DNA of 64,000 bases. It comes from Botryllus schlosseri (Eukaryota). How positions within the stretch are numbered: position 1 is the first letter of the stretch; each line of letters starts with the position of its first letter. The stretch spans positions 20,090,001-20,154,000 of the forward strand of contig CM119372.1 in NCBI GenBank assembly GCA_051294905.1. Reading direction: 5' to 3'. Shown here one piece after another: positions 1 through 49,700 of this stretch. Made by a program: the position numbers and the translations under genes. A model generated the notes under the pieces. The model was given only the letters and a program-made list of their open reading frames with translations. It searched no databases and was not told the DNA's origin.

Positions 1-69
1 AGTTCACTTTCGCCGTCGTGCGAATAACCCATGTTACGGTTCCATGTTTGTGCGTCTGTATGTCATGCT

Positions 70-793
70 TCAGATTGACTCAGAGTCATTGCAATGTGGC
101 TTATTGGTATTGTTATCAGGTGACATTCGATCTACATCAAAACTACCGGTTATGATAATGTCTGTGGATCGATGTTTGTATACCAACACATTGCATGCAA
201 TGTCACACACCTCCATTTGCGCGTATACTGGTGTGGGCAAACAAGCGCGACGTATGTCTGGATGGTATTTTTTCGTGGAAACACAGGGTGTAACATGTTT
301 ACTTTGAATATTGTTCATTGGTTTATCGATTCACAGTTGATATCCGGATCCGGTTACATACTTTATCATTTCCGATTTCAAACTGAATGTCGAGACATAC
401 ATTGACCAATAAAGACACAATATAGCAAACATGCAGGAGGAAAACTCGACCAGGAATTGTTATCGCGATGGGTGACATAAATCCAACCGTTTTCCGAACA
501 CCGTTATCCACATACCAATCGTCGTCGAGGAGGTGTTTTATTCAGACATTTTGACTCTGGAAAATCCAAAGCACGAACCCGGACATCACAGAACTATCGC
601 AGTCTATTGTCCAAGTTTCCAAAACATGCATTTCAGTGTACAAGAGCATATTGTATGTGGTTAACCGATGATATTGATGTGATACGACCGATGGGGTATA
701 CTCTGAAACCGGTTGTCTGTGTATATTTCCGTCACTGTTTGTTGTAACAATATACAAAATATCAAATTGACTGGTGTGGTTGTCAGTTTTCAA
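70..793 (-). pseudogene. Decayed AP-endonuclease (EEP-fold)-like coding remnant
   Basis: Broken minus-strand frames give LTTYN...MHVLETW (cf. N...DIIxLxETW) and VLVYKH..DIIITGSFDVD (cf. vYR...IIxGDFNxD), in EEP order. Recognised by eye only. Confidence 0.4.
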
Positions 794-809
794 AACGAAA
801 ATGGTATTG

Positions 810-1480
810 TCACCCAGGGAAAAAATGTATTTCCAAGTGAAAACGGTATTGGTACTCAGTTAAATGATAGTTTCCAGACGAAAAGGGATTGTTACCCAGG
901 AGAAAATGATTAGTTACTCTGGGTAAAAGTATTTTTCCAAGCGAAAATGTATAGTTACACTGGGTAAACGCCGGATCTCCAAAGGAAAATGATATTTTTA
1001 CTCGACTAAACGACGGACCACCAAGTTAAAATGGTTTGTTGCTCAGGGAAAAAGGTTTGTTACCCGGGGAAAAAATATATTTCCAAGTGAAAAAGGTTTG
1101 TTAACCAGAGAAAAAATATATTTCCAAGTGAAAAAGGTTTGTTAACCAGAGAAAAAATATATTTCCAAGTGAAAAAGGTTTGTTACCCTGAGAAAAAATA
1201 GATTTCCAAAGGAAAAGGGGTTTGTTACCCAGAGAAAAAATAGATTTCCAAAGGAAAAGGGGTTTGTTACCCAGAGAAAAAATATATTTCCAAGTGAAAA
1301 AGGTTTGTTACCAAGAGAAAAAATATATTTCCAAGTGAAAAAGGTTTGTTATCCAGGGCAAAAATAGATTTCCAAGTGAAAAGGGGATTGTTACACTGGG
1401 TAAACGATAAATCTCCAAAGGACAATGGTATTTTTAGTCAGGTAACGGCTGACCTCCAGGTGAAAATGGAAATTTTACTT
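810..1480. repeat. Tandem minisatellite, 41-42 bp unit
   Basis: Unit ttccaagtgaaaaaggtttgttaaccagagaaaaaatatat recurs at 1081 and 1122 (41 bp); 42-bp variants at 1201 and 1243; degenerate copies at both flanks. Confidence 0.9.
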
Positions 1481-3131
1481 GGGTAGGTATCGTATGTTTA
1501 GTGTCGTTGGTATTGTTAAACGTTGTCGCCGGTAGCCGTTGGTATACTATTACGAGTGTGAAAAGGATTTGCACGCCCTGTGCAGAGTATCGCGGTGGTG
1601 AACATATTTTTCGCGTGACGAAACACGATCGCTGTTTAAATGTTAATGCATGCATTTCGATTTCCGAGTTGCTGTACAATAGAGATGACTCCGCGTTAGA
1701 CCGCGCTGTGTACTTCGATTAAAACCACAAGACCACGTGTAAATCTATTCGCGCAACTAGATGATGTTGATATATTGTTACTAAAATTAATTATTACCTA
1801 TTTACACAACATAAAAAAATACCAATTCATGTCGTAGCAGGTTTTTTGAACACGTGCTTGATGAAAACGATTGGCGACAAGTATGCGTTTGTGTTTGAGT
1901 GAAAAATAATTATTTAGAGTAGTGACATTTTGTGACCAACGAATGCAAATCGATCATGATATTACAATATACGCTTTCGTCAACATAACGACTTGGTGCA
2001 GGAGAAACACTTTCATGTTTTTTCAATAACTGGATTCTCGAGACTTGTTACTTGTACCATGTACCGTTGGTGACTATAACGGCCATTTTGTATGATAGTA
2101 CGTTTAGCTGTTTTGTTGTTAGGGCAATCACTTGATGACTCAGCACTTTTTTTAGTAAAGTAGATTGATTTGTGTGTAAGATGTAAGCACCGTAACTAGA
2201 AAACATATGTACTCTGTTGTTGGAGTAGCTGATTTATTGCTATGACACGGACATATCCTGAAACCTTGGTTGGTTTGTTGTCTTACGAAAGATGAGGTGA
2301 CCTCGGTGTCGTAAATTGTGTTAACTAAACCGGATGGATACCACAATTGTGCTGGACTTACACATGGTATTCGCATACTGCACGCATACAAACTTTTGTG
2401 TAAACAACTCTGATGTTTCTGTTGGTACTAGTGTTGTGTTGAACTATTTGGTTCTTAAGACACATGAACACCCATTCAGACAATAAAGGTCATGTGATAT
2501 CGAAACAGTTTGTAGAGTCTAACCAACCATTCTTTAGTTTCGTAATGCGAGAATATCGAGTAAAGTTAATTACTTAGTGCGATGTTAATATCCTTCGTAC
2601 TTTTGTAAGAGTTGTGGAGTAACATACCAAGTAACTAGTTGACACAAACAAAATATTGAATGACTGCTAACGCATTGAGTTCATAATCCAAGAGGGTGAA
2701 ATTTGTTTACTGTTAAACTAACATAACTCGTATCCAGCGAAACAGATACAATCCGGTGATGTGATGTTGGTCAATATCCATTTTGTAAAGATTGAGTAAA
2801 TCCTCTTCCGTCAGGTGGGTGTGGTTCAAATCAATAGCATGTTACACATAAACATCATTTGTATTGAGGGTGATATTGTTGAGTGATGATGCCGCAACAA
2901 CACAACAAGTATTATTTTGTATCGTGTGTTTGTGCTTTAGGAATAGCGAAGTGTGTGATATTTTGGATATCTGTGTTCGGCTGAAACTAGGGTTGTCCTT
3001 GGGTCTTGTGTTGGGTAAATCAGAACTATGTCTAGAATTCAAGCACGTCCAAGTAACGTCTTTTAGTGACAGAGTATTGTGATGACATTTACTTTAGCGA
3101 ATGACAACGGAAAAATTTCCAATTTCTCTGA

Positions 3132-3133
<2 letters not shown>

Positions 3134-3166
<33 letters not shown>
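3134..3166. repeat. (GT)n microsatellite
   Basis: Perfect GT dinucleotide run. Confidence 0.95.
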
Positions 3167-3170
<4 letters not shown>

Positions 3171-3199
3171 ACAAATAATTCCAGTACACCTAACTATAG

Positions 3200-4960
3200 G
3201 ATACATTTAGTAAACATCGTGCAAATTGTTTCTTTGTGATGGTAACGACTTTCGGTGGCTTAGTTTCATGTCGGGAATTATTATTTGAGGGTTCAAAAAC
3301 AATTTCAATCAATACTAGAAATGAACAACAATGCAAAACACGTTTAGCAAATAACGGTGTAGCGAGTACTTTTTTGATATTACGAGTGTTGGATACTAGA
3401 CACTTCTAGTTGAATTGGATGCATCTAACAAGCATATCACAATTTACTTTTACAATAATCAAAGTCTTAGAGTGTATAACCTCGCGATATTTTACATTTA
3501 GCACGCACAATGGGGAGTTACTGAAATGATTAAGAATTGATCGCTAGCTTCGAACGGTACTCGATACTCAAAGTGATATTTTCACACTCTGTAAAGTGCA
3601 TATGTTTCAATTCTCTGTCGCAAATTCCGACAGTAACGACATTGATGTTAAATCCTCACCCGTGGTTATTGTAAGTGAATCCTAAACATCGCAACAGTCG
3701 GTATGGAAATCGAACGCGTGCGTACTTTTAGATAGGTGACACTAACAAGTTTATTACACCGTGAAATACTCTGAAACGTCGATTCGTGATTGTGTTAGCT
3801 ATATTCATCTTCCATATCTGTGGACACAAAGATATCTTGACTTTGGTTACAACTCACTCGAAACGAATTGTCGCGGGTAATCTAGAAAAGCACAAGTCGA
3901 AGACGAATGATTTGATTTCAATAAACTAAAAAATTCCTTTTGTTTTGATGTTGGATTTAATGCAATTTGTATGACTATACCGAATTCGAATCCGAAAGTG
4001 CAATGTTACTTTAGTAGAAAAATTGGATGACTCGCATTTTGATATTGATAGATGTGTAGAGTAATATGACTAGTTTATAAAATCTCGGTAATGTTTTTTC
4101 GTCATGTCTGTGATCAACAAATATGTGATCAAGTCTTACCATTCGATATTAACTTTCGCAGTCGGTGTAATTTGTTGAAGTAACAATACCGACGAGTTCA
4201 ATAATATTCCCCATCGATGCATTCGAATAATCCGTCAGCTGCAAGCGGATTTAAAACTTGATGGTGTTTCGCGGTTAACTCAAGTCAGTGGTCGTGTTTG
4301 TGTTGATTTCAGGAATGATCATGACGAGTTGCCTGGGTAGATTAGTTAATGTGGTTGTAACTACGACCGTACAGAGTTGCTGACACCCCAATATCTTTTA
4401 TGCTGTAATATACGGATTTATTTGTGATAAATTAATTCTCAGTTATTGTTCAGACATTCAAATCTCGTATACTCAAAATATAATATGTCCAAGTCAAATC
4501 GTATATGCACCGATTAGTAAATACTTTGTCTTCAGAATAGTAACAACCTTTACAATTGAATAAAAAGATAGAGCATACGAATACAACCAGGATGAATTAA
4601 TTCAAATTTGTGAGTTGTAATGATATATTCAAGTAAGGGAAACTAGATTTTTAACAATTGTTAATGTTGTGAATAATTCTTTTGAGTTTGAAATGTGGCT
4701 GGATCAAAGTTGGTAGTCATGTTTGTCAAACCTATTTCACTTCACGCAATGTCAAAGTCCAAATATTTCATTCTGGATTATTTGGATTTATCTTTAGTAC
4801 ATCCCGCGAATGGATTTAAAGTTGGCAAATTACCAAAATGATTGAATAATATCGGGTCAGAGATAGTTGGTATTGATTCTATAAGTGTTAAAACAGCGGC
4901 GTGGAATGTGTGAATGATCCGATGAGGGTGAATGTTGGTGTCAGTAATATTCAGGTTACG
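3200..4960 (-). pseudogene. Decayed ubiquitin-specific protease (peptidase C19)-like remnants, possibly two tandem domains
   Basis: Stop-interrupted translations GCQQLCTVVVTTTLTNLPRQLVMII...IKF*IRLQLTDY...IELVGIV...VIQFFY, and downstream QSRIDVSEYF...GICDRE...ENITLSI, follow USP box order. Catalytic residues not evident. Confidence 0.35.
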
Positions 4961-5054
4961 TTCGATTCAACAGATCGCGTTAATAGGATTTGAGTTGGGT
5001 CGAATCAATACATTCAAATACGATTCAACTTGATTTGTGTAGTGAGTTACACTG

Positions 5055-5690
5055 ATGACTCCCACTTTATCAAACGATATGACATCGAACAGCGTCAACA
5101 CTATGCAAGTCGGAGCAACTTCAAATTTTCACGTCGGCGTCAAATTCGTCTCATCACCCAAAAGAGGTGGCGTTAGCCAATATCTCAAAGGTATATTCAT
5201 CGATGGTAATAACGAAGAGATATCTTTCACGTGTTTCAATCGTGATTTGTTCGGGAACATTGAGAAAGCATTCACCAAACGAAAAAAACTCATGGTCAAA
5301 TCCGGTTGGGTTCAAATTGATAAATTTACTGGAAAACCCACTGTATTACTTGTTCGGGCTTCGTCAGTAACTCTACATGGAAAATCGAGACATACGACTG
5401 AAGAATACCCATTATTGACCTGTGAATCGGTATACGGAAATAAAGATGAATACGTCTCGATCGCCGCTACTTGTGTTTCTCGAGAAGAGAAGATGGTCAA
5501 TTCTGGTGCCGGAAAGGAGTTGAAATTATACAGTTTTACATTGAAGGATGATACTGGCGAGGTGGTTTTGGATCAATGGAACAAAGCCTCGCTCGTACCC
5601 GGGAAGAAATATCAACTCACTCGTGTTAAAAACTGTGTCGACAGATTGAGAATCGATCAGTTAACTAGACTTGTCGAATTGAAAGAATAG
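5055..5690 (+). CDS. Intronless 211-aa protein with two putative OB-fold (RPA/SSB-like) domains
   Basis: Intact ORF. Motifs YLKGIFIDGNNEEISFTCF and LYSFTLKDDTGEVVLDQWN...LVPGKKYQLTRVK resemble OB-fold DxTGxI.xTxW strands. Confidence 0.65.
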   Translation: MTPTLSNDMTSNSVNTMQVGATSNFHVGVKFVSSPKRGGVSQYLKGIFIDGNNEEISFTCFNRDLFGNIEKAFTKRKKLMVKSGWVQIDKFTGKPTVLLVRASSVTLHGKSRHTTEEYPLLTCESVYGNKDEYVSIAATCVSREEKMVNSGAGKELKLYSFTLKDDTGEVVLDQWNKASLVPGKKYQLTRVKNCVDRLRIDQLTRLVELKE

Positions 5691-5949
5691 TTTGCTTATT
5701 TGTATCTTGTAATACAATATTTCCATTGGCAAGAAATGTATGACCTATGTGATTCGACAACTGGGTTAGCGCGGTGTTGTTCTACTGATCGAGGTGCGAA
5801 AATTACACTATCGCGGTGAAGTCGCGGTTGTGAACAGCAGCATATTCTGTAGGTGCGGAACAGCGGTATACAAGGTGCGAATAATCCGATCTGAAAGTCA
5901 GCGTGCTATTAAGGTTACGTAGGAATCAATAGGCACAGTGCGAAAAGAC

Positions 5950-6295
5950 GCCGCGGTCTATATCCACAACGTTAGTTCACTACCAAACAAGCCATGGCAG
6001 GTCATCGCCGCAGCCTATACCCACAACGTTAGTTCACTACCAAACATTCCATGGCAGGTCATCGCCGCAGCCTATACCGAAAGGGTGGGGTCACCAACAC
6101 GAGTTTTCAAGGTATATCATCACCGCAGCCTATACCTGAAAGGGTGGGGTCATCACCGCGCCAATAAGAAACAATGGCAGGTCACCACCGCAAGGGGGGT
6201 CTAAAAGGGTGGGGTCATCACCCCGGGTTTTCAGGCAGGTCACCACCCCGCCCATAAGAGCCCCAGGCACATCATGAGAGATCTACTATACTACT
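5950..6295. repeat. Subterminal GC-rich repeats ending in a putative Polinton/Maverick-type terminus
   Basis: Two ~57-bp direct copies at about 5955-6075, three aaagggtggggtca units, then agatctactatactact ending at 6295 (reverse complement AGTAGTATAGTAGATCT). Confidence 0.5.
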
Positions 6296-6432
6296 TTCGC
6301 CCACCACAGCCTGAATATAAAAACGCGAAGCCTGAAATGCCAGTTTCAGGAAATAATCCTGTAGTTTAACTTTGAAAGACCATATGCTCAATGCTCAAAT
6401 ACGCCTGTGTGAGTACAGGCCTATATATAGCG

Positions 6433-6778
6433 TAGGCTTACCATATTTTGGAAATCTAAAAAGAGGACACTTTTTCAGAAATTTGAGACTTGCAAAACCG
6501 GAGAAGAATTCTAAAAAATCGGTGAATTTTTCCCACTTTGTGATCGGTTGACTAAAAAAAAGATCATCTTTTCGCTCAGAGCTCAAAATACCGTTTGAGC
6601 GTCACCGCTGTGCTAATTTACGGCATATCACTCGCATTTTGCTGTAAATATGACCTAAATTTTCAAAAAAGAGGACAAAATCTCATAAAAGAGGACAAAA
6701 GGGCGTCCCTCGAGGACACTTTCAAAAAAGTCAAAAAAGAGGACAAATCCTCTTAAAAGAGGATGTATGGTAACCCTA
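6433..6778. mobile_element. Non-autonomous hAT MITE (family copy 1)
   Basis: TIRs taggcttaccata / tatggtaacccta; 8-bp TSD atatagcg on both sides; internal aagaggaca repeats. Confidence 0.9.
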
Positions 6779-7190
6779 ATATAGCGTGACAATCCGATCC
6801 GATCAGCTGCATACGCAATCGTTTTACCCTACGCTGCACCTTACCTCGCCCAGTTTCACCAGGATTGAACTCCCGATTGGCAGTAAAATCTATTTCTCGA
6901 TAATAGTCAACCGGTATATCTATAGAAAGAACATACATCCATAAAATAGGTTTCTTAACATCCGGAAACAAACAAAGGAATGCCAACAGTAAAAACGATT
7001 GATGATAGCAATCTGTTTCAACTTACAATAATAATTTACGAGATATATTGTCCGCGAAATGGTGCAGTGTACGCGAGAAGTGCAAAATGAACGAAGCCGA
7101 TTGACTAAAACACTGCGGCGAGACGCAGTTCTAACGCGTCAATGTGGAAATTGATGAGACGTATGCTTTATAGGCCACCGCTGACCGCCT

Positions 7191-10100
7191 TCAATGACAC
7201 GGTGAGCGGCTAGCAGTACCGAAAGGAGACGGGCAATTGCGAAGGAGCGGGGTATTGCGACGGAAGCCGAAGCTTCCGTTGTAGCTGTTCATGGGCCCGA
7301 TTTCCGACAAGAATTGGTCGTGGCCGTCGATGCTGTCTCTTGAGTAGCCTGGGGAGAAGAATGCATACAATTATGTGTATATATAATATAAATATCTACG
7401 CGTTTTAGATAGTCGAAGGGTTGAATTTCATGTAAGAGCAGACGGATGTCAATTGTTTAACGAACCGCAAGGAATATTGACAAACTAACAGCAATGCAAT
7501 CAGAGATGGTGAGTAACGAAGTACTTAAACCAGGGGTGTCAAACTCAACTTGGGTCGCGGCCGAATTCAAACATTTTGATCGCTCGCTGGCCGGATCGGC
7601 CAATTGATTGCAAAATGTTACCTTCAAACCCACACCATTTTCACTAGAATGCCTTATTATCAAAGCTATACAGCATACATAATAGTCCAATAGTATATAA
7701 TATAAATTTGAGATCATATGACTATGCTAGCAACGACGTTTTTGTTGTTGTTGTTGTTGTTAGTATTGTACATGTACAGTACAGTACATACGGCGTTCGG
7801 CTACTAAGGCATTTTACACCACGTTATTTAGTATCGAAACTATAATTCTCGTATATAAATTAACTTTCAGTGGTGAGAAGCGTATATAATTTCAGTCTTT
7901 TACTACTCGACTTGAATCATTAAAATTAATACTCAATTCAGATTCGAGTATACTCGAATCATCGTGCCTAGACCTAGTCGTGATGCGGCGTTGGCCTGCG
8001 CATTCGTTGTGAGGGATACAAGAGATTTAAAAGTAAACGCGAATGATGGAATTCAATTGAATATTAGGCCTATCGTTCATTTTTCATTTTTCTTCGTTCA
8101 TTCGATTCATGCTTTCGGTGTACGCAAGCAGTCAGAACCGTCGAGTTGCCTTGATGTAATAAGATGGCGAAAAATTGGGCTAGAAATAGACTTCGGGTCT
8201 CCCAAACGTTATTTTCCCGACTCGCGTTCACGTGATATACATGAGATAGATTCTCCGGCCCACACAAATAAACAGATCGTCTACGCACAAGCTCCAAAAC
8301 TCCATGCAGTCTCCTGACAACCGCACACCACCACTGAGAATACACGAAAGTCCTATTACCTGCGCCCGACCTATTTCTCTTCTCCATGTAGATATGACCA
8401 TCGCCAATATTGTGGAACCGATCTACAGCCTTGCCTTGTATAGACTCGCTCCTGCCGCGAAGCTGTTACAGTGCATCAGTCGCGGTATTGGATAAAATAG
8501 AAGATGTATTGGATTCGACTCGACTCTTACCTGACCGGTCTTCCTCAGGTTTTGCTTCACTCCGTGGTACTTGAAATAGTTCTGCACGTGCTTGTCGAAG
8601 TGGGAATTGTAAGGGGGGATGGCGGGGCCCAGCTTAGGCTGGACTCTGGCGTAGTCCGTCTGTAACAAATAAGCACAGATGGCGGATGAAGGCAGATTTT
8701 ATCGGTCACATCCAGAGGCTGGGAGTTACGACGGCTACTTTCTCGAAGTACTCAAAGTAGGTTTTGACTACTGCAGTCGAGTGGGAATGTTTTAGACTAC
8801 TCCCATTTCTACTTCAACATTTCTGCAGGCAAAAGTACTTACTTTTTACGCTTTTGGTTTTGAAAGGTAGAAAGTATTGGGATAAGTTCTACCACTTACA
8901 TGGGTAAAATATAGTCCCTGTATAACAGTAAATGAATATATTTTGGAAAATTGCGCAGATTTGCAGTGCCGGTACAATCATTTTGCGTTGGTCGCGAACT
9001 GATCCATCTTGAGATTTCAAAAGTAGCAACCTCCCATTAACTGCTGAAATTATGCGACCTCTCGACCAAATCTATCTCTCAAAATTACTTACTTGAGTAC
9101 TTTTCAGTCCTTTCATTTTCTACTTCTACTTGAAGTAGTTTTGACATGTCTTGTATATCGCTACTTCTACTTCTAATTGAGTACAGATTCATGGTGTTAG
9201 TTCTACTTCTACTTGAGTAGCAACGCTGACCACTATGATCTCCGTATACAAAACGCAACCTCATTCCCAAAAGACAACATAAGTAATTGATTTCACTGGT
9301 CTACAAACCGGTTAGCATACAACAGCAACAGATCAAATATTGTTATTAAATCGTCTATCATGAAACCTGGGTTGTTGTAGTACAGAATGAGTGAGTTTTC
9401 GATGAACTTAAATCCAGTGATTCTCTATCTATCTATCTGCTGTTTCGTAAAACGTAAAAGTTTGCAAAACAACAAACATTGTATTGTTGGTATATTATGT
9501 AGAATAGAATTGTTCCCTCCGGTACATGACCTAAATATGTGCCCCTTTAAGCTTGCTTTGAATCATTAGAAGAAACAGGATGCCTGCTTTTCCAAAGAAA
9601 AAAGGGCTTATCATGATAACTTGCAAGAATTTATCATTATTAATCCACGCCTGTACTTATCATGCTAATTCTTCTCCGCCAGTTTTCATATTCTGTTACA
9701 TCTTATCGGAATCGAGGAGAGCTGTTTCCGAACGCTTTTTTTTGGTTTATTGCCATGGTATAATGGGCTTATTTTGCATTGTCTATTATAGACAACCAGA
9801 TGAATGGAGATTGCATAATAACAGCTTAACACGAAACCTGAAGTGCGTGTTACTTCACAATAGAAATAAATATACATCGTTTCGACATAGGACATTTTGT
9901 GACCTACGCCAAATATCATGTGTTCTATGCTGGAAGAGAGCCAGAGATGAGCATTGATTCATTTTTGATTAATTAGTGATGTTTTTATATGGTTTCGAGG
10001 CTTTTCCTTGCAGGATTAAATGCCAGTTCTAAATACAAACAGCTTACATTCTGGGTGGTTTCTGATTTGCCGTAATATTTTGCTGCGAACTAGAGTTGGT

Positions 10101-26869: not shown

Positions 26870-28091
26870 ATCTACTGAATATGCGACAAAATATAGAATT
26901 TTTTAACCGCAAAAACGAGACACGTTTACCTACCCTACCGGTAGTTTACGAAATATGGTTCGAACTTGTTTCGTCACGAAACCCTTATCACGAGCACTTA
27001 TTCTAATTCAGCAATCTAGGTATCAACTGAGCAAGGTTGTATGCAGCACTCACATCATATTTCCCAATACAAAATAACGGCACAGCAAACAACGTCACGC
27101 ACAGGCCAACAAAAGGAGCCGATAGTGATTGGGCTTTTGCTCATGCTGGTAAGAAATCGTGATTGTGACGTCACACAATCAAAAGTCTGTACCATTCCGA
27201 TTTAGGAGGCAACGACTTTCTCTGCGCGTCCTTGCGGAGTGGAGTTTGTTACGTGTGCTCAACACGCAATCGTCCAAAGGCCAGGCACAACTCTCATACA
27301 GGCAGCACGGTTATTCTACTAGCCCTCGTTGATGACTAGACTACTTCGTTCGGTCCATTAGCAATTTTTATTAACCCAATACACCACAAAAATAGCGATA
27401 CAATGAAAAGACTATGCCTGCTTCGGAGTATAATCGAAGTAACCGGATGAAAAGATCTGAGTTCGGTATATTATTATCTCAAATAAGATCCAGATACGAC
27501 GTCAAACATATCCTCCTCTGATCCTATGCAAAATGGCTTTGAAGTATTCAGCTTCAGCTGCGCAAAGCATAACCGCGTAGAGTACGTCCTACCTCGTGCT
27601 GCCACACTAACATAATTGAAGCTGTAATCTACGTAACCCTGTCGCAGGACTGGGTTTCTGAAGTATGTTGTAAGTTGTAACTCCTAAATAATGTTGCATA
27701 AAGCGTTCGCAATGGAAGGAAAAACACAGAAAGCTATGTCCTTAAATATCCAAACACCGTTTTACTAGATCGGATGAGCTTGATGCTACCCTATGAGCAT
27801 ATCTATTCATTGAAGTGTTTTGGAAAGGCACACGAATAAGTTATGTTCAACGGAGCCTGGCACGAACTGTCCTCTTCGTGATGTACAAGCTTGAAATCCT
27901 GCTCACAAGTCAAAAGTGTAAGGTGAGGATAACAGCTGACGACTGTTCATATCCAGTGTTCACGCATATTATGACATCGCTAGATATTTTACGATAGTAG
28001 ACCGGTCCCATAAAAAGGATACCCTGCGTACCGTTCTACAATATATAAAGAAACTGATGATTGCAACTGAAATCTAGGATCTACTAGTAGC

Positions 28092-31700: not shown

Positions 31701-34700
31701 TAAGGGTCAAACAAGCTTCCTTATGTTGATGACCTTACTGATATTTATGTATGATGTATAAAATGCTGGTTGAGGCATGTATACGATAACAACTCGAAGA
31801 GAAACAAATTACCTTTGCACATCAGATTGCCAGCAAGGTGCATGTCATCTATATGCCACACGTATATCAAATTACAAACAATCGCATTATTCGATGTACA
31901 ACTGAATACACATCCTCAAACCCAGAGGAGAAATTCCATCGGGTGTAGAAATCAACGTCTTTAATATCGAGATTGGGGTTTTGGCATCACACGTTGCGTT
32001 TTCTAATCACTCGCGTTCGATCAATGTGTTGCTAATTTGCTCACATAGTCGGAAGCACACAGAGTACAGAACAAATCCAATCCATAGATAAAAAATAACA
32101 TCCACCTCTTGCGTATCTTCCGCTCCGTCGCGATTCTGATTGTTCCTTTCCAGATCCCTCAGCCACTGACCGTTCACGCAATAGTGAGGAAGAAGAGCGA
32201 CGAGCTGACGCTGTGAAACAAACATGAAAAATCTCCTTACAAAAATAACGCTAAAAATTTGTCAGTAAACAATGAGGAATCTGGAAAAATGCATCTTTTG
32301 GGACAGATGGTGAAGTACACATTCCACTTCTTTTGGCATAAAAAAGAGTTCTATAATGCCACGAGCCACAGAATTTGTCGCCCAAGTATTCCAGACAACA
32401 TCGCAAAAACATTTTTAAAGTTAATTTTGCGACCAGAGACTTTATAAAGAAGTGATTGATTTATTATATTCTTTATTCACAGTAAAACTGGTAGATACAC
32501 ACATAATCCGGGGAGCAACCTGCCCCCAAAGGAAAATGGCGAGATTGGAGTAAATTTTTAAAATTTCAGTAATACATTCAAATTGTTATTCCTATGCAAT
32601 ACACGGAGAAGTCAGATTACAGAATTGCAGCAGATGAAGAATTGGCAAGGGTTACAGAGCAGAGGTAGAGATGATTGAAGATGAAGAATCGAAATTACAG
32701 AAATTATGCTGTGATTCACAAGCGTAATTTTAGTCCAGTGGTGCATTCAAGGCCTTCCGAAGAATGTGCACAGTGCCCAATAATGTGATCTTTTGGATCA
32801 TGTCGAATCGAACGTTACCCGGAATTTGTTGGATATGTCTCATGAGTTTTTTGCTCACGACCCCTGTAGCACCAATGACTATCGGTACAATGTTTATTTT
32901 GCATCGCCACATTTTCTCACATTCCATTTTGAGGTCTGCGTATTTGGAGTATTTTTCTGATTCTTTTTGCTGTAGGTTGTGATCAGCTGGGACAGCCAGT
33001 TCAATGAATAAGCATTCTCTTTTCTTTTTTAGTTTGACGATTATATCCGGGCGGTTGCTCCTGATTTCGCGGTCAGTTATAACTGGTACATCCCACAGAA
33101 TTTTTACTTGTTCGTTTTCTGTCACTGGTGCTGGGCTGTAATCGTACCAATTTTTTGTCGAAGTGGTGATGTTAAAATGTTTGCATAATTCAAGATGAAT
33201 GTAGTGACCAATCCTATTGTGTCTCCATGTGTATTCGGTAGCTGCAAGTGCACCACAGCCGGACATGAGATGTGCTACAGTTTCATTTTGGTTGTGGCAC
33301 ATTCTGCATTTGCCGTCCGTGTTTTGCTTCAGAATTCTTTTGCGATAGTATTTTGTAGGAAGCGATTGGTCTTGTGCTGCGAAACTGAATCCTTCGCTTG
33401 CCGGTTTCAGGCCAGAGCTGGATAGCCACGTCCATGAAAGCTCGTCTACATGGGGCTGTGAAGTTAACTTCTTGTGCTGTCCATGAAGAGGCATCGACTC
33501 CCATATCGTTTCTCTCATTTTCAGCGTTGCATTTTTGTATCGGACTCGTGCTGCTTTTGCTATTGTTGTGGGTTTAGCAACAGTGTTTTCTGCAGTGTAC
33601 AGGTTAGCTGTTTCCAAGTTGACTTCTCTGGCGTACTTGTCGTGACGATAGCTCAGAGATTTTGTTTTGCGCTGTTTGTCTTCCTGTGCAATGAGTTTGC
33701 AGTAAATGTTATCGCTGTTGTTGATGTACTGTGACAAGCCGATGATTTCTGTTTTGAAGGTTTGTTCAATTTCTTGTAGTCCTCGACCACCTTTTTTTCT
33801 GGGGATGTACAGTCTTTGTGTATCAGATTTTGGGTGATGCATGTGGTGCATTGTCATCAGTTTTCTCGTCTTTGTGTCCAATTTTTTAATTTCATCTTTA
33901 CGCCAGTTCACCACACCAAAGCTATATCTCAAGACAGGCACTGCAAGACTGTTTATGGCATTGATTTTGTTTTTGGAATTGAGTTCAGTTTTGAGAATTG
34001 ACTTGAGCCTGCTGATGTATTCTTTTTTTAGACTTGATTTCATTGCAGCATGTTTAATGTTGTCGCTTTCACAGATCCCTAGATATTTATAGTGATCTTC
34101 GGCATTCAATTCTGTTATGGTTTCGTCCATTTTGAAGTTCATGTCGCCAGTGCTGGTGGCTCTTCCGCGTCGTATGGTAAGTTTTGAGCATTTATCCAAG
34201 CCAAATTTCATTTTATATCTTCCGAAAACTCATGAACAATTTTCATTTGGTTATTCAGGTCTGTGTCGGATTTCGCATACAGTTTCAGATCATCCATGAA
34301 CAAAAGGTGATGAATCTTTTGACCTTCAGAATTTGCTGCTTTTTTCATCACGTATCCTGTTTCATTTTTTCTCAGCAACTCACTGAGTGGAGCTAAGCTG
34401 AGGCAGAATAGAAGTGGTGAGAATGAGTCGCCTTGGAAGATACCATTGCATATCTGAATTGTACAGGTTTCTGTTTCACCTTGGTCATGTTTGATCAACA
34501 GTTTTGTATGCCAATTTTTCATTGAATTTTCAATAAATCTGATGATGATCGGATTCATTTTGTACATACGCATTGTTTTCAGTATCCACGTGTGAGGGAC
34601 TGAATCGAAAGCTTTTTTGTAATCTATCCATGCCATGCTGAGGTTAGTGTGTCTCCTCTTGCAGTTTTATTATTATATTCTTTATTCACAGTAAAACTGG

Positions 34701-37700
34701 TAGATACACACATAATCCGGGGAGCAACCTGCCCCCAAAGGAAAATGGCGAGATTGGAGTAAATTTTTAAAATTTCAGTAATACATTCAAATTGTTATTC
34801 CTATGCAATACACGGAGAAGTCAGATTACAGAATTGCAGCAGATGAAGAATTGGCAAGGGTTACAGAGCAGAGGTAGAGATGATTGAAGATGAAGAATCG
34901 AAATTACAGAAATTATGCTGTGATTCACAAGCGTAATTTTAGTCCAGTGGTGCATTCAAGGCCTTCCGAAGAATGTGCACAGTGCCCAATAATGTGATCT
35001 TTTGGATCATGTCGAATCGAACGTTACCCGGAATTTGTTGGATATGTCTCATGAGTTTTTTGCTCACGACCCCTGTAGCACCAATGACTATCGGTACAAT
35101 GTTTATTTTGCATCGCCACATTTTCTCACATTCCATTTTGAGGTCTGCGTATTTGGAGTATTTTTCTGATTCTTTTTGCAGTAGGTTGTGATCAGCTGGG
35201 ACAGCCAGTTCAATGAATAAGCATTCTCTTTTCTTTTTTAGTTTGACAATTATATCCGGGCGGTTGCTCCTGATTTCGCGGTCAGTTATAACTGGTACAT
35301 CCCACAGAATTTTTACTTGTTCGTTTTCTGTCACTGGTGCTGGGCTGTAATCGTACCAATTTTTTGTCGAAGTGGTGATGTTAAAATGTTTGCATAATTC
35401 AAGATGAATGTAGTGACCAATCCTATTGTGTCTCCATGTGTATTCGGTAGCTGCAAGTGCACCACAGCCGGACATGAGATGTGCTACAGTTTCATTTTGG
35501 TTGTGGCACATTCTGCATTTGCCGTCCGTGTTTTGCTTCAGAATTCTTTTGCGATAGTATTTTGTAGGAAGCGATTGGTCTTGTGCTGCGAAAATGAATC
35601 CTTCGCTTGCCGGTTTCAGGCCAGAGCTGGATAGCCAGGTCCATGAAAGCTCGTCTACATGGGGCTGTGAAGTTAACTTCTTGTGCTGTCCATGAAGAGG
35701 CATCGACTCCCATATCGTTTCTCTCATTTTGAGCGTTGCATTTTTGTATCGGACTCGTGCTGCTTTTGCTATTGTTGTGGGTTTAGCAACAGTGTTTTCT
35801 GCAGTGTACAGGTTAGCTGTTTCCAAGTTGACTTCTCTGGCGTACTTGTCGTGACGATAGCTCAGAGATTTTGTTTTGCGCTGTTTGTCTTCCTGTGCAA
35901 TGAGTTTGCAGTAAATGTTATCGCTGTTGTTGATGTACTGTGACAAGCCGATGATTTCTGTTTTGAAGGTTTGTTCAATTTCTTGTAGTCCTCGACCACC
36001 TTTTTTTCTGGGGATGTACAGTCTTTGTGTATCAGATTTTGGGTGATGCATGTGGTGCATTGTCATCAGTTTTCTCGTCTTTGTGTCCAATTTTTTAATT
36101 TCATCTTTACGCCAGTTCACCACACCAAAGCTATATCTCAAGACAGGCACTGCAAGACTGTTTATTATTATATTCTTTATTCACAGTAAAACTGGTAGAT
36201 ACACACATAATCCGGGAAGCAACCTGCCCCCAAAGGAAAATGGCGAGATTGGAGTAAATTTTTAAAATTTCAGTAATACATTCAAATTGTTATTCCTATG
36301 CAATACACGGAGAAGTCAGATTACAGAATTGCAGCGGATGAAGAATTGGCAAGGGTTACAGAGCAGAGGTAGAGATGATTGAAGATGAAGAATCGAAATT
36401 ACAGAAGTTATGCTGTGATTCACAAGTGTAATTTTAGTCCAGTGGTGCATTCAAGGCCTTCCGAAGAATGTGCACAGTGCCCAATAATGTGATTTTCTGG
36501 ATCATGTCGAATCGAACGTTACCCGGAATTTGTTGGATATGCCTCATGAGTTTTTTGCTCACGACCCCTGTAGCACCAATGACTATCGGTACAATGTTTA
36601 TTTTGCATCGCCACATTTTCTCACATTCCATTTTGAGGTCTGCGTATTTAGAGTATTTTTCTGATTCTTTTTGCAGTAGGTTGTGATCAGCTGGGACAGC
36701 CAGTTCAATGAATAAGCATTCTCTTTTCTTTTTTAGTTTGACGATTATATCCGGGCGGTTGCTCCTGATTTCGCGGTCAGTTATAACTGGTACATCCCAC
36801 AGAATTTTTACTTGTTCGTTTTCTGTCACTGGTGCTGGGCTGTAATCATACCAATTTTTTGTCGAAGTGGTGATGTTAAAATGTTTGCATAATTCAAGAT
36901 GAATGTGGTGACCAATCCTATTGTGTCTCCATGTGTATTCGGTAGCTGCAAGTGCACCACAGCCGGACATGAGATGTGCTACAGTTTCATTTTGGTTGTG
37001 GCACATTCTGCATTTGCCGTCCGTGTTTTGCTTCAGAATTCTTTTGCGATAGTATTTTGTAGGAAGCGATTGGTCTTGTGCTGCGAAAATGAATCCTTCG
37101 CTTGCCGGTTTCAGGCCAGAGCTGGATAGCCAGGTCCATGAAAGCTCGTCTACATGGGGCTGTGAAGTTAACTTCTTGTGCTGTCCATGAAGAGGCATCG
37201 ATTCCCATATCGTTTCTCTCATTTTGAGCATTGCATTTTTGTACTGGACTCGTGCTGCTTTTGCTATTGTTGTGGGTTTGGCAACAGTGTTTTCAGCAGT
37301 GTACAGGTTAGCTGTTTCCATGTTGACTTCTCTGACGTACTTGTCGTGACGATAGCTCAGAGATTTTGTTTTGCGCTGTTTGTCTTCCTGTGCAATGAGT
37401 ATGCAGTAAATGTTTTCGCTGTTGTTGATGTACTGTGACAAGCCGATGATTTCTGTTTTGAAAGTTTGTTCAATTTCTTGTAGTCCTCGACCACCTTTTT
37501 TTCTGGGGATGTACAGTCTTTGTGTATCAGATTTTGGGTGATGCATGTGGTGCATTGTCATCAATTTTCTTGTCTTTGAATCCAATTTTTTAATTTCATC
37601 TTTGCGCCAGTTCACCACACCAAAGCTATATCTCAAGACAGGCACTGCAAGACTGTTTATGGCATTGATTTTGTTTTTGGAATTGAGTTCAGTTTTGAGA

Positions 37701-40700
37701 ATTGACTTGAGCCTGCTAATGTATTCCTTTTTCAGACTTGATTTCATTGCAGCATGTTTAATGTTGTCGCTTTCACAGATCCCTAGATATTTATAGTGAT
37801 CTTCGGCATTCAATTCTGTTATGGTTTCACCCAGTTTGAAGCTCATGTCGCCAGTGCTGGTGACTCTTCCACGTCGTATGGTAAGTTTTGAGCATTTATC
37901 CAAGCCAAATTTCATTTTTATATCTTCCGAAAACTCATGAACAATTTTCATTTGGTTATTCAGGTCTGCATCGGATTTCGCGTACAGTTTCAGATCATCC
38001 ATGAACAAAAGGTGATGAATCTTTTGACCTTCAGAGTTTGCTGCTTTTTTTCATCACGTATCCTGTTTCATTTTTTCTCAGCAACTCACTGAGTGGAGCT
38101 AAACTGAGGCAGAATAGAAGCGGTGAGAATGAGTCGCCTTGAAAGATACCATTCCGTATCTGAATTGTACAGGTTTCTGTTTCGCCTTGGTCATGTTTGA
38201 TCAACAGTTTGGTATGCCAATTTTTCATTGAATCTTCAATAAATCTGATGATGATCGGATTCATTTTGTACATACGCATTGTTTTCAGTATCCATGTGTG
38301 AGGGACTGAATCGAAAGCTTTTTTGTAGTCTATCCATGCCATGCTGAGGTTAGTGTGTCTCCTCTTGCAGTTTTCAAGAATGGTTTTGTCAAGGAGCAGG
38401 TGGTCCTTACAGCCAAGGGCACCTTCCTTGCATCCTTTCTGCTCAGGCGGAAGGAGGTTTTCTAGGTGTTTGTAGCTTCGTTTTGCCAGGATTTTGGTCA
38501 GTGTTTTGTACATGGTTGTCAGGCATGTTATCGGCCTGTAGTTCTTGGGGTCCCTGGTGTTTTCATTTTTTGGAATAAGATAGGTGATCCCTTGTGTGAA
38601 CCAGGCTGGGATCTCGTGCGAGTTGGTTGAGGATAAAAGCTCATTGTAGATCGCCGCTAGGTAATTATGTGTTGCAGTTAGTTTTTTTAGCCAAAAGTTT
38701 TTGATCTGGTCAGGACCAGCTGCTTTCCAGTTCAGTGAACTTTTTAGGGCCTCCTTGATTTCTTGTTTTGTGATTTCTGACCATTGTTGTTCTGGTGTTT
38801 GTAGTTGGTCAGTGTGGAGGTCTTGTATCCAAGTTGCATTTGAGTTGTGCAATTTTTCGGTTTCCCATATTTCTTTCCAAAATGATTCCAGATCTGCAGT
38901 GGCTGGAATTTTGCTGCTGGTAATTTTGTGGTTTGACTTTTGTTTCATCATTCGGAAAAATTGGCCAGGTTTGCGAGTAAATAACAAGTTTTGGCGATAT
39001 TGTGTTTCTCGTTTTTTATATCGTTTCAATCGTTGTGCTTTGGCGCATATTCTCATTTTTAATTCCTCTTGCAACATTGTCACTTTTTCTGTTGACTGCA
39101 GTTTTGTTTGGTGCTCCAGTTCTATTTTTTTTACTTTATTTTTTACTTTGCGGGAAACATTTCCTTTTTTTAGTTCTGAGAGTATCGCAACATCACACCT
39201 TAGTTTTGCGATTTTGTTTTCAATTCTGCGTTGCCAAGCTGGCGTGTGGCTTCCCCTTTTTTTGTTGACAGGTCTTGGTATTTTGCAGTGCCTTTCCGAG
39301 ATAACTGCCGCAGTGCTGTAAATGAGGTTGTTGATTGTCGTTAAGGGACATTGTGGTCTTTCTCCTTTTTTGTCATTTATTGCAGGTAGTATGGTTTCTG
39401 TCAAAATTTTGTTCGCTACTGCAATATCAGTTTTCAGTTTCTTTGTAATTTGTAGGTCAGGTAAATTCACTCTGTCATTTATATCCAATGTGGAGTTCAT
39501 TCGGTCGATAATTTTATTTTTGATCTCCAATTCTAATTCCGTGTCCATGTCATCAACGTTAGGTGATGTTGGTTCATTCGGGTGCCCGATGGTGTTTTGT
39601 GATTCTACCACTGGGATGTTCAGGTCTTCAAGTGGTTGTTGAGGATTCAGGTCATCTTGGCCTAATTGAAGTTCTAGTGCCTCAGAGTTTTCTGTGTTTT
39701 TGTTACAAATTATTATTATTTCCATTATTATTTCCATTCCCCTAATGCAGCTGTGCAAAGATGCGAACACTATCCCCTACCTGTATCCGCGACTGATGAG
39801 CTTGCAACTCGACGAGGACAGGCTGCGGAATGGTGTGCACCACCGCTTCGCTGGAAAAATCCAGACTGGCCACTTGACACAGGATTCCGGTGACGTATTT
39901 CAACTCCATGAGAGACTGAGAAAAAGAATCAACTTTAACGACCGCTGTTAGACTGACAATCGGCCACTGCAAACAATACAGACTGTCGGTTGTTGCCAAA
40001 AAAGGTTTAGAGCCGCTGCTCTATTTCACTTTTGTCTTCAGAATCGAAAATACCAGAAAGTTACTACAACAACAACAATGAAAAAAATCAGTCACCTGCA
40101 CGTCGCCAGGTATCGGCTGCAGCTTCAAAACCGGATTCACGACCGAGTCCATATGCGCCAGCATAAATTCAAACACCAGCCCGCCGGCTTCAAAGTGCGA
40201 CGCGCCCCCGAACGTGGACAGCACGGCCTGGCAGATCTTGAGCGCGGGGAACAGCAGCTGTCGATAACGCGACGTAGCGCTCGGCAAAAACGAGTCCGGG
40301 GAAACGGCGTCGTGCTGTGTCGGTCTCGCCTCCAGGAAGGAGCACTCGGAGAGCTTGGCGAGGACGCCGGCGTCGAGCACGGCTCTGGCGCCGGCCGGAG
40401 TGCGGGCGATCGAGCATAGGAAGGCCATCTTTTGCTCGTAGACGTATAGAGATCGGACAGCGTCTGTGTTTGGCGAGAGGGCTCGCTGCAGGGACTCGTC
40501 CTCTTGACGGAAGCTGGAGACGGAAGATATGATCGTGAGGTTGACCTTTATAACCCTAAAACTAGCCCTAACCTGGAACCTGAGAATGACATAACGAAAA
40601 AAATCAACAGTTGAGCACATCACTTTATACCCTAAAGCTAACTCAACCCTAACCGAATTTGAATTTTACACATGTGAGACAATGGAAATCGACATTTCAG

Positions 40701-43700
40701 TTTGTGCCGCTTGAACGTGCGAGGTTATAACCACCAAAACTAACTCAAACCAAAACACAAAATTAACCCTAACCCTAACAGCAATCACGATATTAATCAT
40801 TACCCGGACACCAACCCTGACTGTAACTTAAACCGTAAGCTCATAATGTCCAAGGACAGATAATAAAATTGATCATCGCTCAGAAATTCAAACCCGACGC
40901 AAGGGGGCGTAACATCCTTGAATCCTTGGTGAGAATCAATTACACCCAAAAAACGGTCATTCCTGCCTTACTTAGTGTTAGATTCAGAGTGGGAAAAACT
41001 ACCGTAATATTCCATGTATAATGCGCAAAATTTTCACGATTTTTTGCCCCAAAATAGGGGGGTGCGTATTATACATGGACACAACAAGCCTTGAAAAAAT
41101 TTCCTTCGATAAAAAGCTTGAAATCACCCTATTATTCATGTTCGTCTCCAATCGCGCATCACTTTCAGCGATCGCGCACAGTAATTCGTATTATAGTATA
41201 ATGCGCTGCAATTAGCGGGAAGCGTGTTGCTAATTAACGAGAGACGTGTGCAAAAGCACGCGATCTCCTGCTGAGTTGGTTTGCCGTTTGTACGCGAGCG
41301 AAATTAGGTCACTCATAGGCAATTGCGCGCGGCAATTCTCGCTGATTCAGCGCGTCAACAACAGCCCCGAACAATCGCATATATACAAGAGACCATGTGC
41401 GCAAGATATAATCGCTTGCGTAATCAGTCGCATCTCCAACAGACCCGGTGCGCACGACATAACCGTTAGCCTGAGCAATCGCATCTGTAATAGGCGTCGT
41501 GCGGTTCGTTGGCCTAAACTATCTCGCCGCCGGCCTCGCAGGCTTAGGCTGCTATCTACTATCGTTTAGAGACAATGCCAATAATTGTGTAATGATTAGC
41601 AATCGCATATGTAATAGGTCTTGTGCTCAAGATGCCGTGTCGCTAGCCTGAACTATCGCGCCACCCGCCTCGCAGGCTCTGGCTGCTATCTGCTATCGTT
41701 TAATGACAATTCCGGTAATTGTATAATGATTAGCGATCGTTATGCCATGATTGTTTAACAGTGATATCGCAAACCAGAATGACATCGTATACTAAATCGG
41801 AACTATTCATGTACTGAAATGCAGGGTGCGTATTATACATGGGTACAGGCTTTTTTCCAGAATTTGCATGCTATTTTAGGGGTGCGTATTATACATGGGG
41901 GCGTACTATACTTGGAAAATTACGGTATTCAAATCTATTTCTAAGTGGTGATTGGCGATTTGTATTTTCCTATATTCCCTGCTAATCACAACTTATTGGC
42001 CCAAATATTGACGTATACGGTCAGCGGTCAGTGTCACGCAGAACATCAATTTCGTTCTGTGCATAATGACCTCAAGTCGATTACGTGCTTTTTCATAGCC
42101 TAATCTGCCAACATCATTTCAGAGGGGCCGGCAGAGTTTTCCTTGGTCTCGCATAAAAAGCGCTCGTCAATCATAAAAAGTAAAGTATAATCGGGCAATG
42201 GAATTCGCCCGGCATGTACCTGCGTGCAATAGCACCGACGTATCCGTTTTTGATCATAAAATTCAACCACGTTTGCTCGTAATCAATTTGAACGATGGCA
42301 TCGAGCACGGAAAATGCCAGAATCCTACAGATGTTATGACCTGGAAACAAGCAAACACTTTCAACAGACACCAACATTAGCCGAGCGAGCTGGGCAGCAT
42401 ACCGTCGCAAGAATCCTTGCATATCAATTCCATCAAGGCGTCGCCGTAAGTGCGCAAGAGCTTGACGTTGTCTCTCGATAATTTCGAGTAAATGTCCATC
42501 GTCAAGGCCTGAAGTCCGATCAGAGACGTTGATTCCTCTGAAATTTAGAATAGAATTGACAATATTCGAATTTGTGTTAGCTTGTTGTTCAAAGATAACG
42601 TTTTCAGAAGCCCGACCGACATCATAAGTTTGAGCTGATGTGACAGTCGGTATGTAGGTCGCACGTCTCAGCGCTTGCAGCAAAGAATTCGCCAGCGTGT
42701 CCCACGGCAAATTAGAATAACTAATGTTTCTCCAACTCCTTCATCGCAGTCTGTTGACACACTGCGTGATTATGATCAAGTTACTGCTTGTAATTCGGCT
42801 ATTGGACAGCATCTCTTATCCCATCCAGAATGTGCTGATCATTACAATGACAGTCAATTTTCTATACTTGATCGTGGCCGTTCTCTTTTTCATTTAAAGG
42901 TCCTGGAATCTACGATCATAAAGCTACGAAAGCCGATTCTCTGTCGCCAGAGGGAACGCCTCTACGCTCTTGGAATATTTCATTAATGTTATGTGTTGTG
43001 TTTTCGGTTATTTATAACCGAATATGTACTCGCTAACGTTTGTTTTGTACCGTTATTACCGTATCTTGCCCGTCTACTAGTTGTTTGTTATGTTATTATT
43101 ACGTCATACAGACAAAATAGTTCTTACATTTCGAATTTGATTCACCCTATCACTGACGTTCGCTACTGATGAGAGTCGGTCGAAAAGCTTTTAGCGAATA
43201 AATCAACAATATGAGGTTATTGTTTCGCGTTATTCTGAAGTCCTGTACCACAAATCACTTGCTCAGATATCAATATAGCGTATTTTTGCCGATGAAGCCT
43301 ATATTATCGTTCAAAATGTGACAGATGCCTACCAGAACCTCTAATTCAGTGGTTCATAACCTCTTTTAAATATACTCCAAAATTTATGGTTACGCGGACC
43401 CCCCAACCGTGCCCACACCCAAGATAATTTTTTGAAGTGTACAATCGGGGCTTAATTCCGCGAAATCTAGGCCATGACTTTCGCCCTAATTCGTGCCATT
43501 AGTGTTCGTTTCGTCCATGTGGCTACTGTGTCTTGTGGCGAGCACATAAAATTAGACAAAATATGGACAAAGTCAAACATAGTAGGTAGTTTTATAGTTC
43601 GTAGTTGTAAGTTGAACATTGGCCTCACACTTGAACCCAGACCAAAAGGGATCCATGGACACTAGGTTAAGAACCCCTGCTCTAAATCAATGTTGGCTTT

Positions 43701-46700: not shown

Positions 46701-49700
46701 AAATTCCTGAAAAGCAATGTCAGACATGAAACGACATCGATCGATTTTACTATCGACAAAAATCTGAAACGGAGGCATCCAAATTAGCCATCGAGTCCAA
46801 TAAAACTTCTGCTAAAATACAAAAACTAGCCATTTCCAAGATGGTCAAAGTGGTCATCGTTGGTACTCACGTAGAAGTTGACGCAACGTCGTAATTTTCT
46901 ATTCAAGTAGAGATTTCCAAGCAAGTAAAAAACCCGGGCCTCGATACATTTCTCTGTATTTTCCAATACCCAAATTAGTTTTTTTTCTACGAGGTATCGC
47001 CGTTCTACGTAACTAATTGAAAATACAGACCACAAATCTAATGCATGGATAGCAGGTCGATTGAATCGATGAAAATGACTGAAATCATTAGCGGTTGAAA
47101 ACCGATCACTTGCTTGAATAAAATCCAATTCCTCCAGAACGCGGAGAATCAGCGGCAGGTCGTGCTGCGGAAGCGTGGTCCTGCTCATATTCAACCCGGT
47201 CACGGATGACATTGTCATTTCCAATCCCAGACCGCCGCCGCCAACGGAGCTGGCACCTAGACCGGGAAACGCGGTGGTCGAATTGGCGCTGGTCGGCATC
47301 GCAGACGCAGCCAGCACGGAGGAAGTGTTGCTTTGCTTCTCAAACAATATCTGAAACGACATAAAAGATTTTGTAGCTGTCATGAAGGCGCTCTGCCAGT
47401 CATTCGAAAAGCAATACTAAATATATATCCTACACAAGCATTGCTTCATTCTCACAATCCGCACTGAAAACACATCATAGGAGCCGGTGCGTTGTGTGCA
47501 CAGTAGGGTTGTCCAAAATTTGGAAAATCTTAAAAAGTCTCCGTGATTGTGTCTCATTCTATAGATTATTGATGAAAAACAACAATTAGCCTGAAAGAAG
47601 CTTACAGAAATGCCGTTAAGATTTCGGTCAAAGCGTTTGAAAGTAGCTGCTCAAGAATGGGCGTGCCACCGACCATAGAACGGCGAGAAGACTAGTAATC
47701 AAACAACAACGGCTCTTGATTGGCTAATCGTCTATGCTCCAATGATCACGCCAGCAGCAGCTTGCTGATTAGGTGTTCAAGAAGTCTGCTACCGGCGGGG
47801 ATTCTGAGTGCGCATTGTTAGTATTTTGGCAGGTGGTGATTTAAAATTGATTCAGGACATGTTGAGTTACGAAATACATGATGAACACACAACACCTGCT
47901 TCACAGAAGCTTTTACAGCATGACTGCTTTATTGTGAAGGAAACGGCTGAAGCCTACATGCCGTGTTTTCATCGAGGTAAAGCAAAGGCGCTCATGCAAG
48001 TGTTGAGCGAATTCACCGTTTCAGTACGCATCCATCATCAGTGAATACAAATATAAATAGCTTAACAATGACACTATACTTTGTGTGATCTTATTGGGCT
48101 GAAGTTGTAGTATATAGGTGACGTTTTGAATGCTCTAGGGATTAGCGTAATCAGCCGGTTATGCTTGGCACTTATCAGATGCTTACAGCAAATTGAATGC
48201 ACTTGTAGGCGTTGTTTAAGTCATTAATGAAAACGCAGAAAAGAGGTGGTAATGTACGCACACTCGTACAGGCTATGCTGGATATGGTATCTCAAAGTCC
48301 CTATTGATCCCGCTGAAAAGAGGTGAGAAGAAAAGCACAGACTATGCTGCATATAGTATCCAGCATAGTTTGGATATCATATCCAGCATATAGCCTGTGC
48401 TTACCTTACACCTCTTTTCTGCAGCATTAGTAAGGACTTTGACAACTCTTATAAAGTGAATTCAATTTGCTGTAAGTATAACTGCCAAGCATAACCGGCC
48501 GATTCAGTCGATCCCTAGAACCTTCAAAACTTAAACTATATACTACAACTTGGGTCCAATAAGATCACACATATTAGTCAAGCTTTATATTTGTATTCAC
48601 TGATGATGGATCCCTTCTTAAACGGGGAATTCGTTCACCACTTGCATAAGCACCGTTGATTTTCCTCGTAAAAAACACGGCACGTAGGCTATATAGCCGC
48701 TTCCTTCACAATAAAGCAGTTATGCAGTAAAAGGTTTTGTGAAGCAGGTGTTGTTTGTTCATCATGTATTTCGTAACTCAACATGTCCTGAATCAATTTT
48801 AAATCACCACCTGCCAAAATACTAACAATGCGCACTCAGAATCCCCGCCGGTAGCAGACTTCTTGAACACCTAATCAGCAAGCTGCTGCTGCCGTGATCA
48901 TTGAAGCATAGCCGATTAGCCAATCAATAGCCGTGGTCATAGGCGCTGAACTCTAATTTTCCCTAGGTATGCGGGATCGCTGATGTCACAAAGGGGTGAC
49001 GTCATAGTGCGTCATAATTGACAAATGAGCGTTCAATATCACCTGTCACTTATATACGGTCACAAAATTACGATAGTATTAAGCAGGCGCGCAGCCTGCC
49101 GGCCGCTTGCTGAATTGATTGAATTCATTTCAAATTTACCAAGGTAGCATCAGTTTATTATGGTCACGTGCATGCACCAATGTCGATAATACATCGAGCG
49201 GATCAGCATCTTTGTGTAACGGACTCGCACGTAATTCTTGACACTACGACGACACATCACGCTACTATAGGATTACCAGCGAGTCCGACTACGCAGTCAA
49301 CTCGCCTCGAGAGCAAACGAATACGCATCTGTGGCGACGGTCGACGGCTATTCTCACAAATGGAAAGCCTGTGCGTGCTGGACTCTATTCATTAGTCACT
49401 CTGATTTCAGGGGAGTCAGAAGTTTCGATATCAAGAGCCTGCAAGACAATTTTCTGATTGTTCTGTTTTAGTATTAGCGTTAATCAAAATCAATTACGCC
49501 GCTGTGTGTTCACGATCAGTATGTATTTTAATCAATTGCGTCCATGTTCAATGTCTGAGCCAGTCTGACATCACAATCTCAGAAAACGGGATAGTTTCGA
49601 CAGGCGCATCAGATATCATATTCCGACACAGCAGGAGATGACAATCGCCACATTTCGCCAATAGAAATTGACATTTTTAGTAACTCGAACCTTGAGACAC

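Follow-up and report, generated by a model that had tools for sequence, protein, structure and literature searches.

The first 6,295 positions of a 64,000-nucleotide stretch of Botryllus schlosseri DNA (assembly GCA_051294905.1, contig CM119372.1, positions 20,090,001 to 20,154,000 of the forward strand; the whole stretch is referred to as the window) form a high-copy repeat block that is probably the right arm of a non-autonomous, helper-dependent derivative of the Polinton/Maverick transposons, most likely a near-palindromic satellite. The block ends in a Maverick-type motif and carries a single substantial open reading frame (ORF), which likely encodes a protein that binds single-stranded DNA (an SSB). 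The original prediction, made from the letters of the window, had described the end of a large element combining a Polinton-like terminus with Helentron-like cargo; the large mobile element, its Polinton-type end and its SSB-like gene were supported, and the Helentron cargo was not. The features on which the argument draws are as follows.

Positions 1 to 6295, no strand assigned: right-hand part of a high-copy mobile element, recognized by run depth and continuing to the left of the window.
Positions 1 to 5045, no strand assigned: region with no open gene, possibly eroded coding DNA, with a longest stop-free frame of 105 codons.
Positions 5079 to 5690, plus strand: ORF of 203 codons for a putative ssDNA-binding protein with a tandem OB fold resembling RPA70-A/B, pointing toward the terminus.
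Positions 5941 to 6289, no strand assigned: GC-rich subterminal repeats, a candidate origin or binding region.
Positions 6290 to 6295, no strand assigned: (ACT)2 end motif, (AGT)2 from outside, a Maverick/Polinton-type terminus whose junction is placed by the depth interval.
Positions 6296 to 6301, plus strand: candidate 6-bp target-site duplication TTCGCC, right copy only, proposed from the 6-bp rule of Mavericks (PMC8097293).

The repeat status of the block was assessed with four sequencing runs out of 24 listed, three of DNA (X1, X5 and X7) and one of RNA, which were aligned to positions 1-9000 and whose contig depths were summed per 300-bp bin; these sums are not copy numbers. X1 may come from the source sample, whereas X7 bears another organism label and was interpreted as shallow sequencing of this species or a close relative. 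Across the 21 bins of positions 1-6300, the depth in X1 ranged from 28,000 to 560,000, with 18-26 for three bins of host DNA; the corresponding values were 850-28,000 and 3-7 in X5, and 22-400 and 0 in X7. The block is thus a high-copy repeat over its entire visible length, rather than the single-copy host DNA named beforehand as a refutation. In agreement with the original description, no part of positions 1-6400 matched the window's other repeats. The GC content of the block was close to that of the host, and a steady positive GC skew of 0.06-0.18 per kb over positions 1-6000 was the clearer difference. On the right, the depth was still at repeat level at position 6149 and had become single-copy by 6901, while a miniature inverted-repeat transposable element (MITE) at 6433-6778 masked the intervening bins, so that the most likely place for the boundary is 6149-6432.

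Within this interval, positions 6283-6295 read CTACTATACTACT (AGTAGTATAGTAG from outside) and are followed by TTCGCC, so that the terminus sequence originally reported is indeed present; the 13-mer is unique in the window. The motif 5'-(AGT)2//(ACT)2-3' is the commonest end of vertebrate Mavericks, which generate 6-bp duplications (Barreat and Katzourakis 2021, PMC8097293). By itself the hexamer is weak evidence, since ACTACT or AGTAGT turns up 46 times in the window when both strands are counted. Between 6149 and 6432, the only ACTACT is the one at 6290; chance would give about 0.11 copies in this 284-bp boundary interval. The GC-rich repeats described in front of the terminus were likewise confirmed: the last 355 bp (5941-6295) contain 53.5% GC, compared with 35-43% elsewhere, and comprise a 57-bp unit repeated 2.3 times between 5949 and 6078 and three GGGTGGGG boxes at 6083, 6142 and 6207. 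No unusually stable hairpin was detected in 6200-6310 (z 0.13), the terminal 20-mer gave no match in metagenome contigs, and seven viral-contig matches to the terminal 16-mer were discarded as chance.

The ORF at 5079-5690, for which alternative ATG codons are present at 5055 and 5103, was the only one longer than 105 codons in positions 1-6295, and it exceeded the longest frame in all of 200 shuffled sequences. A 96% identical copy (P0001) was found on an ENA contig, together with one distant relative of 214 residues (P0003; 24-26% identity, E 5e-5) on a Logan contig of 12,767 bases. A profile search for relatives yielded nothing beyond these two, three scans of viral contigs yielded none, and a further candidate, P0002, was rejected as a chance match within a repetitive protein of 2,620 residues. 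Atlas features placed the protein with OB/RPA clusters at 0.93-0.95. Whereas a single-sequence model was poor (predicted local distance difference test score, pLDDT, 40) and its structure search came back empty, a model built from the three-sequence alignment reached a pLDDT of 66.9 and a predicted template modelling score of 0.49. A Foldseek search with the latter retrieved Teb1 AB (E 1.9e-8) and RPA70 (E 2.2e-8) from the PDB, and baculovirus LEF-3 (E 1.5e-5) among viral models. The first half of the model aligned with Teb1 OB-A over 91 residues (Z 9.4, root-mean-square deviation 2.6) and the second half with an OB domain over 82 residues (Z 8.7, deviation 3.1). The Atlas features and the structural matches of both halves thus indicate that the OB-fold gene noticed at the outset is real, and the predicted fold makes it likely that its product binds ssDNA.

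The variation between copies was consistent with selection on this protein. Among the 40 variants listed out of 694, ten fell in the ORF; eight of them lay at third positions and seven were synonymous, against an expected synonymous share of 22-27% (binomial p 0.002-0.005 for 7/10). In the RNA run, about 6% of which was read, the two bins of the ORF had a depth of approximately 20, whereas the other 19 bins of the element had a median depth of 1.5 and did not exceed 6.6. Every RNA read differed from the window copy at some sites, and these reads are weak evidence that some copies of the gene are transcribed.

The rest of the arm presented closed frames. In positions 1-5000, the longest ORF was no longer than in shuffled sequences (p 0.63), and frames of at least 80 codons were mildly in excess (nine versus 4.2 expected, p 0.015). 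Pfam gave nothing at its cut-offs in the six frames of 1-6295 or in 30 sub-frames, searches against PHROGs (eight sequences) and PDB sequences gave nothing significant, a broken left-hand frame sought among longer proteins was found in none of 106 candidates, and the minus-strand ORF 73-330 scored 0.80 in Atlas and provided no lead. The earlier statement that no pPolB, integrase, capsid or Rep/helicase is visible held for the ORFs and the six-frame Pfam search of 1-6295, which were also free of an ATPase and a protease. Six of the eight X7 pieces listed differed from the window by 0-3 substitutions at depths of 27-40, host DNA being nearly absent from this run. Moreover, a high-depth X7 contig matched 2629-2854 with no difference, a segment in which every frame of the window has at least three stops. 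The closed frames are consequently common to copies, and at least part of the family must have spread after they had closed, which is the behaviour of a helper-dependent element.

Comparison with known systems set the block close to, and in several respects apart from, the Mavericks/Polintons (polintoviruses, adintoviruses; PMC8097293; Starrett et al. 2021, PMC8502044). It shares with them the (AGT)2//(ACT)2 end, a large size, a gene without introns close to the end, subterminal repeats rich in GC and an animal host, but its visible 6.3 kb lacks pPolB, integrase, ATPase, protease and capsid genes, and its very high repeat depth contrasts with the median of eight copies of vertebrate Mavericks. 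It also carries an RPA-like tandem-OB gene, whereas SSB or RPA is not mentioned in the available main text of PMC8502044, nor SSB or OB fold in that of PMC11071308. The tandem OB fold is shared with RPA70 DBD-A/B, Tetrahymena Teb1-AB and baculovirus LEF-3 at 7-16% sequence identity, and the RPA trimerization domain is absent from the block protein.

We infer a helper-dependent and probably palindromic element, for which the following course of events can be envisaged. An autonomous Polinton would supply the protein-primed polymerase and the integrase, and the polymerase would initiate on the AGT repeats with a jumping-back step, as has been proposed for Mavericks (PMC8097293). Strand-displacement synthesis would then free a long single strand, which in a palindrome could snap back into a giant hairpin and restore the duplex end, and the helper integrase would insert the product with a 6-bp duplication. 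The element's own SSB would coat and protect the displaced strand, as do the SSBs of other protein-primed replicons. One such replicon is that of adenovirus, whose SSB is DBP; the SSBs of the protein-primed phages Bam35 and phi29 are described as coating the displaced strand, and by analogy with such protein-primed viruses the same role is proposed here. A function of this kind would maintain selection on the SSB as the remainder of the arm eroded, and the erosion would be older than at least part of the amplification. In the complete picture, an endogenous Polinton would have a giant satellite that folds back on itself and contributes an RPA-like SSB of its own, selected and transcribed, to the protein-primed replication of the helper. 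This is plausible, though we put it forward only tentatively.

Several observations weigh against this interpretation. No loose end was seen at 6295 among the 24 listed out of 3,612, although the edges of the MITE were among them; if the ends are young and identical, contigs spanning the junction may have been too short to align. No strand-change joint was present among the 15 listed out of 179, and the other end, the second copy of the duplication and the centre of any palindrome lie outside the window. HIN-200 domains, several of which have been solved with double-stranded DNA, fit the fold as well as the RPA-type domains (Z 9.7 versus 9.4), and for this reason we infer, rather than observe, the single-strand binding of the protein. 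The selection test comprises only the ten ORF variants among those listed. Finally, the RNA reads map to both strands and come from other copies or alleles, and 2,442 of the 2,480 aligned reads fit only in part.

Among the other explanations, a non-palindromic Polinton, in which an eroded accessory region and an ordinary terminal inverted repeat would be visible, the core genes would lie to the left and the SSB would be an accessory gene of the autonomous form, appears unlikely. The same end motif fits it, its core genes could lie left of position 1, and vertebrate Mavericks, whose copies are mostly degraded, bear accessory regions on the flanks of the core (PMC8097293). Approximately 5 kb with no gene is, however, long for a Polinton of about 17 kb that needs eight core genes (PMC8097293), the high-depth copies share their closed frames, and no consistent doubling of the depth marked the final 600 bp, which stood higher in X5, level in X7 and lower in X1. 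An unclassified large repeat unrelated to Polintons, either another DNA transposon or a macro-satellite unit with its edge near ACTACT by chance, would accommodate the placement of the edge by a depth interval, the chance expectation of 0.11 for the hexamer, and an SSB with no known mobile-element context in the relatives searched; it is nevertheless quite improbable, given that ACTACT stands directly behind the GC-rich terminal repeats and that host depth is single-copy by 6901.

The remaining alternative is the one originally predicted, a chimera of a Polinton end with decayed RPA-like, OTU and apurinic/apyrimidinic (AP) endonuclease genes of Helentron origin. Genes for RPA, OTU and AP endonuclease are indeed found in Helitrons and Helentrons (PMC6431247), some of which carry an RPA-like ssDNA-binding gene; pPolB itself, however, bears an OTU domain (PMC11071308), so that such a domain is no mark of Helentron origin. 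For reference, 104 metagenome loci were taken with an endonuclease motif, which was in frame in 51 ORFs. The five long motif ORFs that were checked all proved to be RepHel-endonuclease proteins of Helentrons; one had OTU, two had a protease domain of the herpes-tegument type and one lay beside an RPA-like ORF. In locus L015 (781-10541), a RepHel-endonuclease ORF of Helentron type (2,495 residues, with a herpes-tegument-type protease domain) is followed by a separate RPA-like ORF of 473 residues. These loci show that the three kinds of gene do occur in Helentrons, which favors the chimera, and on visual inspection the broken minus-strand frames of the block contain endonuclease-like words, where the best local profile scores also fall.

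For a profile built from 22 Helentron-type endonucleases, with scoring that allows stops and frameshifts, the top score in the block was nonetheless 21.6 bits (minus strand, end at 524), whereas 150 shuffles gave up to 23.9 and 94 windows of host DNA up to 22.3. A second score of 17.7 bits (minus strand, ending at 4043, near the last motif of the profile) was also inside the null. Applied to 44 held-out genes, this test still scored above the null for 42 after 20% erosion, but for only 15 after 30% erosion, a level at which about two in three true genes would be missed; an endonuclease in the block would thus have to be heavily eroded or unrelated. The weaker profiles behaved alike: OTU (one sequence) scored 18.7 bits against a null maximum of 20.1 with Pfam silent, RPA-like Helentron proteins (three sequences) 21.0 against 29.5, and the tegument-type protease (two sequences) fell inside the null. 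A tblastn search with the metagenome-locus ORFs of at least 80 codons returned low-complexity or unrelated frames (best E 4e-4), and neither a match to real RepHel proteins nor a Rep/helicase remnant was found in 1-6400. Two matches from an endonuclease motif scan of viral contigs were dismissed as chance, and the OTU, USP-like and two endonuclease remnants read by eye were dropped, their scores being within the null. The SSB, at 203 residues, was barely alignable to the Helentron-linked RPA-like ORF, with a marginal match of 15 residues.

Helitrons have ends that start with 5'-TC/TT, or a 3' hairpin followed by CTRR. The block instead ends in ACTACT, reads AGT from outside and has no terminal hairpin at that end, and its visible part is devoid of RepHel and of a detectable endonuclease or OTU. 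The OTU and AP-endonuclease modules of the original prediction were not confirmed by these profiles, and its Helentron-like cargo is not sustained by the endonuclease profile, the SSB or the terminus. We accordingly judge the chimera highly improbable and retain the helper-dependent Polinton derivative as the favoured reading.

Two minor repeats lie within the block itself.

Positions 785 to 1469, no strand assigned: degenerate 41/42-bp tandem array, with a core at 1048-1394 of 8.4 copies and 91% matches.
Positions 3134 to 3167, no strand assigned: (GT)17 microsatellite within the element.

The tandem array varies between copies, as seen from skips and go-backs in the run alignments. Rfam gave no match in 1-7000. 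Beyond the block, the high-copy MITE at 6433-6778 has a second copy at 28088 to about 28460 (84% identical) and ends in TAGG..TACCATA / TATGGTAACCCTA; it shows diverse flanks at both edges in the runs, and its first copy is bordered by ATATAGCG as an 8-bp duplication. We take it to be hAT-like by the 8-bp duplication rule. A short high-copy repeat at about 7828-7950 shows loose ends in DNA and RNA runs. Intron-split exons of the host nucleoporin Nup192/205 occupy 40024-42740 on the minus strand and adjoin a tandem array of a non-LTR (long terminal repeat) retrotransposon at about 32461-39776, also on the minus strand. The array consists of one long copy and several 5'-truncated copies (97.5-99.7% identity) with RVT_1, zf-RVT and, by eye, a C-terminal restriction-like motif, and is presumably R4/Dong-like. 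An inverted pair at 47495-47713 and 50436-50643 (94% identity over 219 bp) probably reflects a small element present in two copies.

Polintons that are degraded or non-autonomous have been described before. In the literature searched, including the available parts of PMC6431247, PMC8097293, PMC11071308, PMC8502044 and bioRxiv 10.1101/2024.01.15.575659, neither a Polinton SSB nor a palindromic Polinton satellite was found; supplements or Repbase may hold one. Polinton replication has been inferred rather than shown; the proposed element, if true, would provide the first SSB tied to it in that literature, as well as anatomical evidence bearing directly on strand-displacement and snap-back copying. 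If a passenger so poor in genes retains just one of them under selection, this would point to a step poorly covered by helper or host. The distant relative P0003, at 24-26% identity, hints at a wider, undescribed SSB family, and the SSB itself is a small protein open to direct assay.

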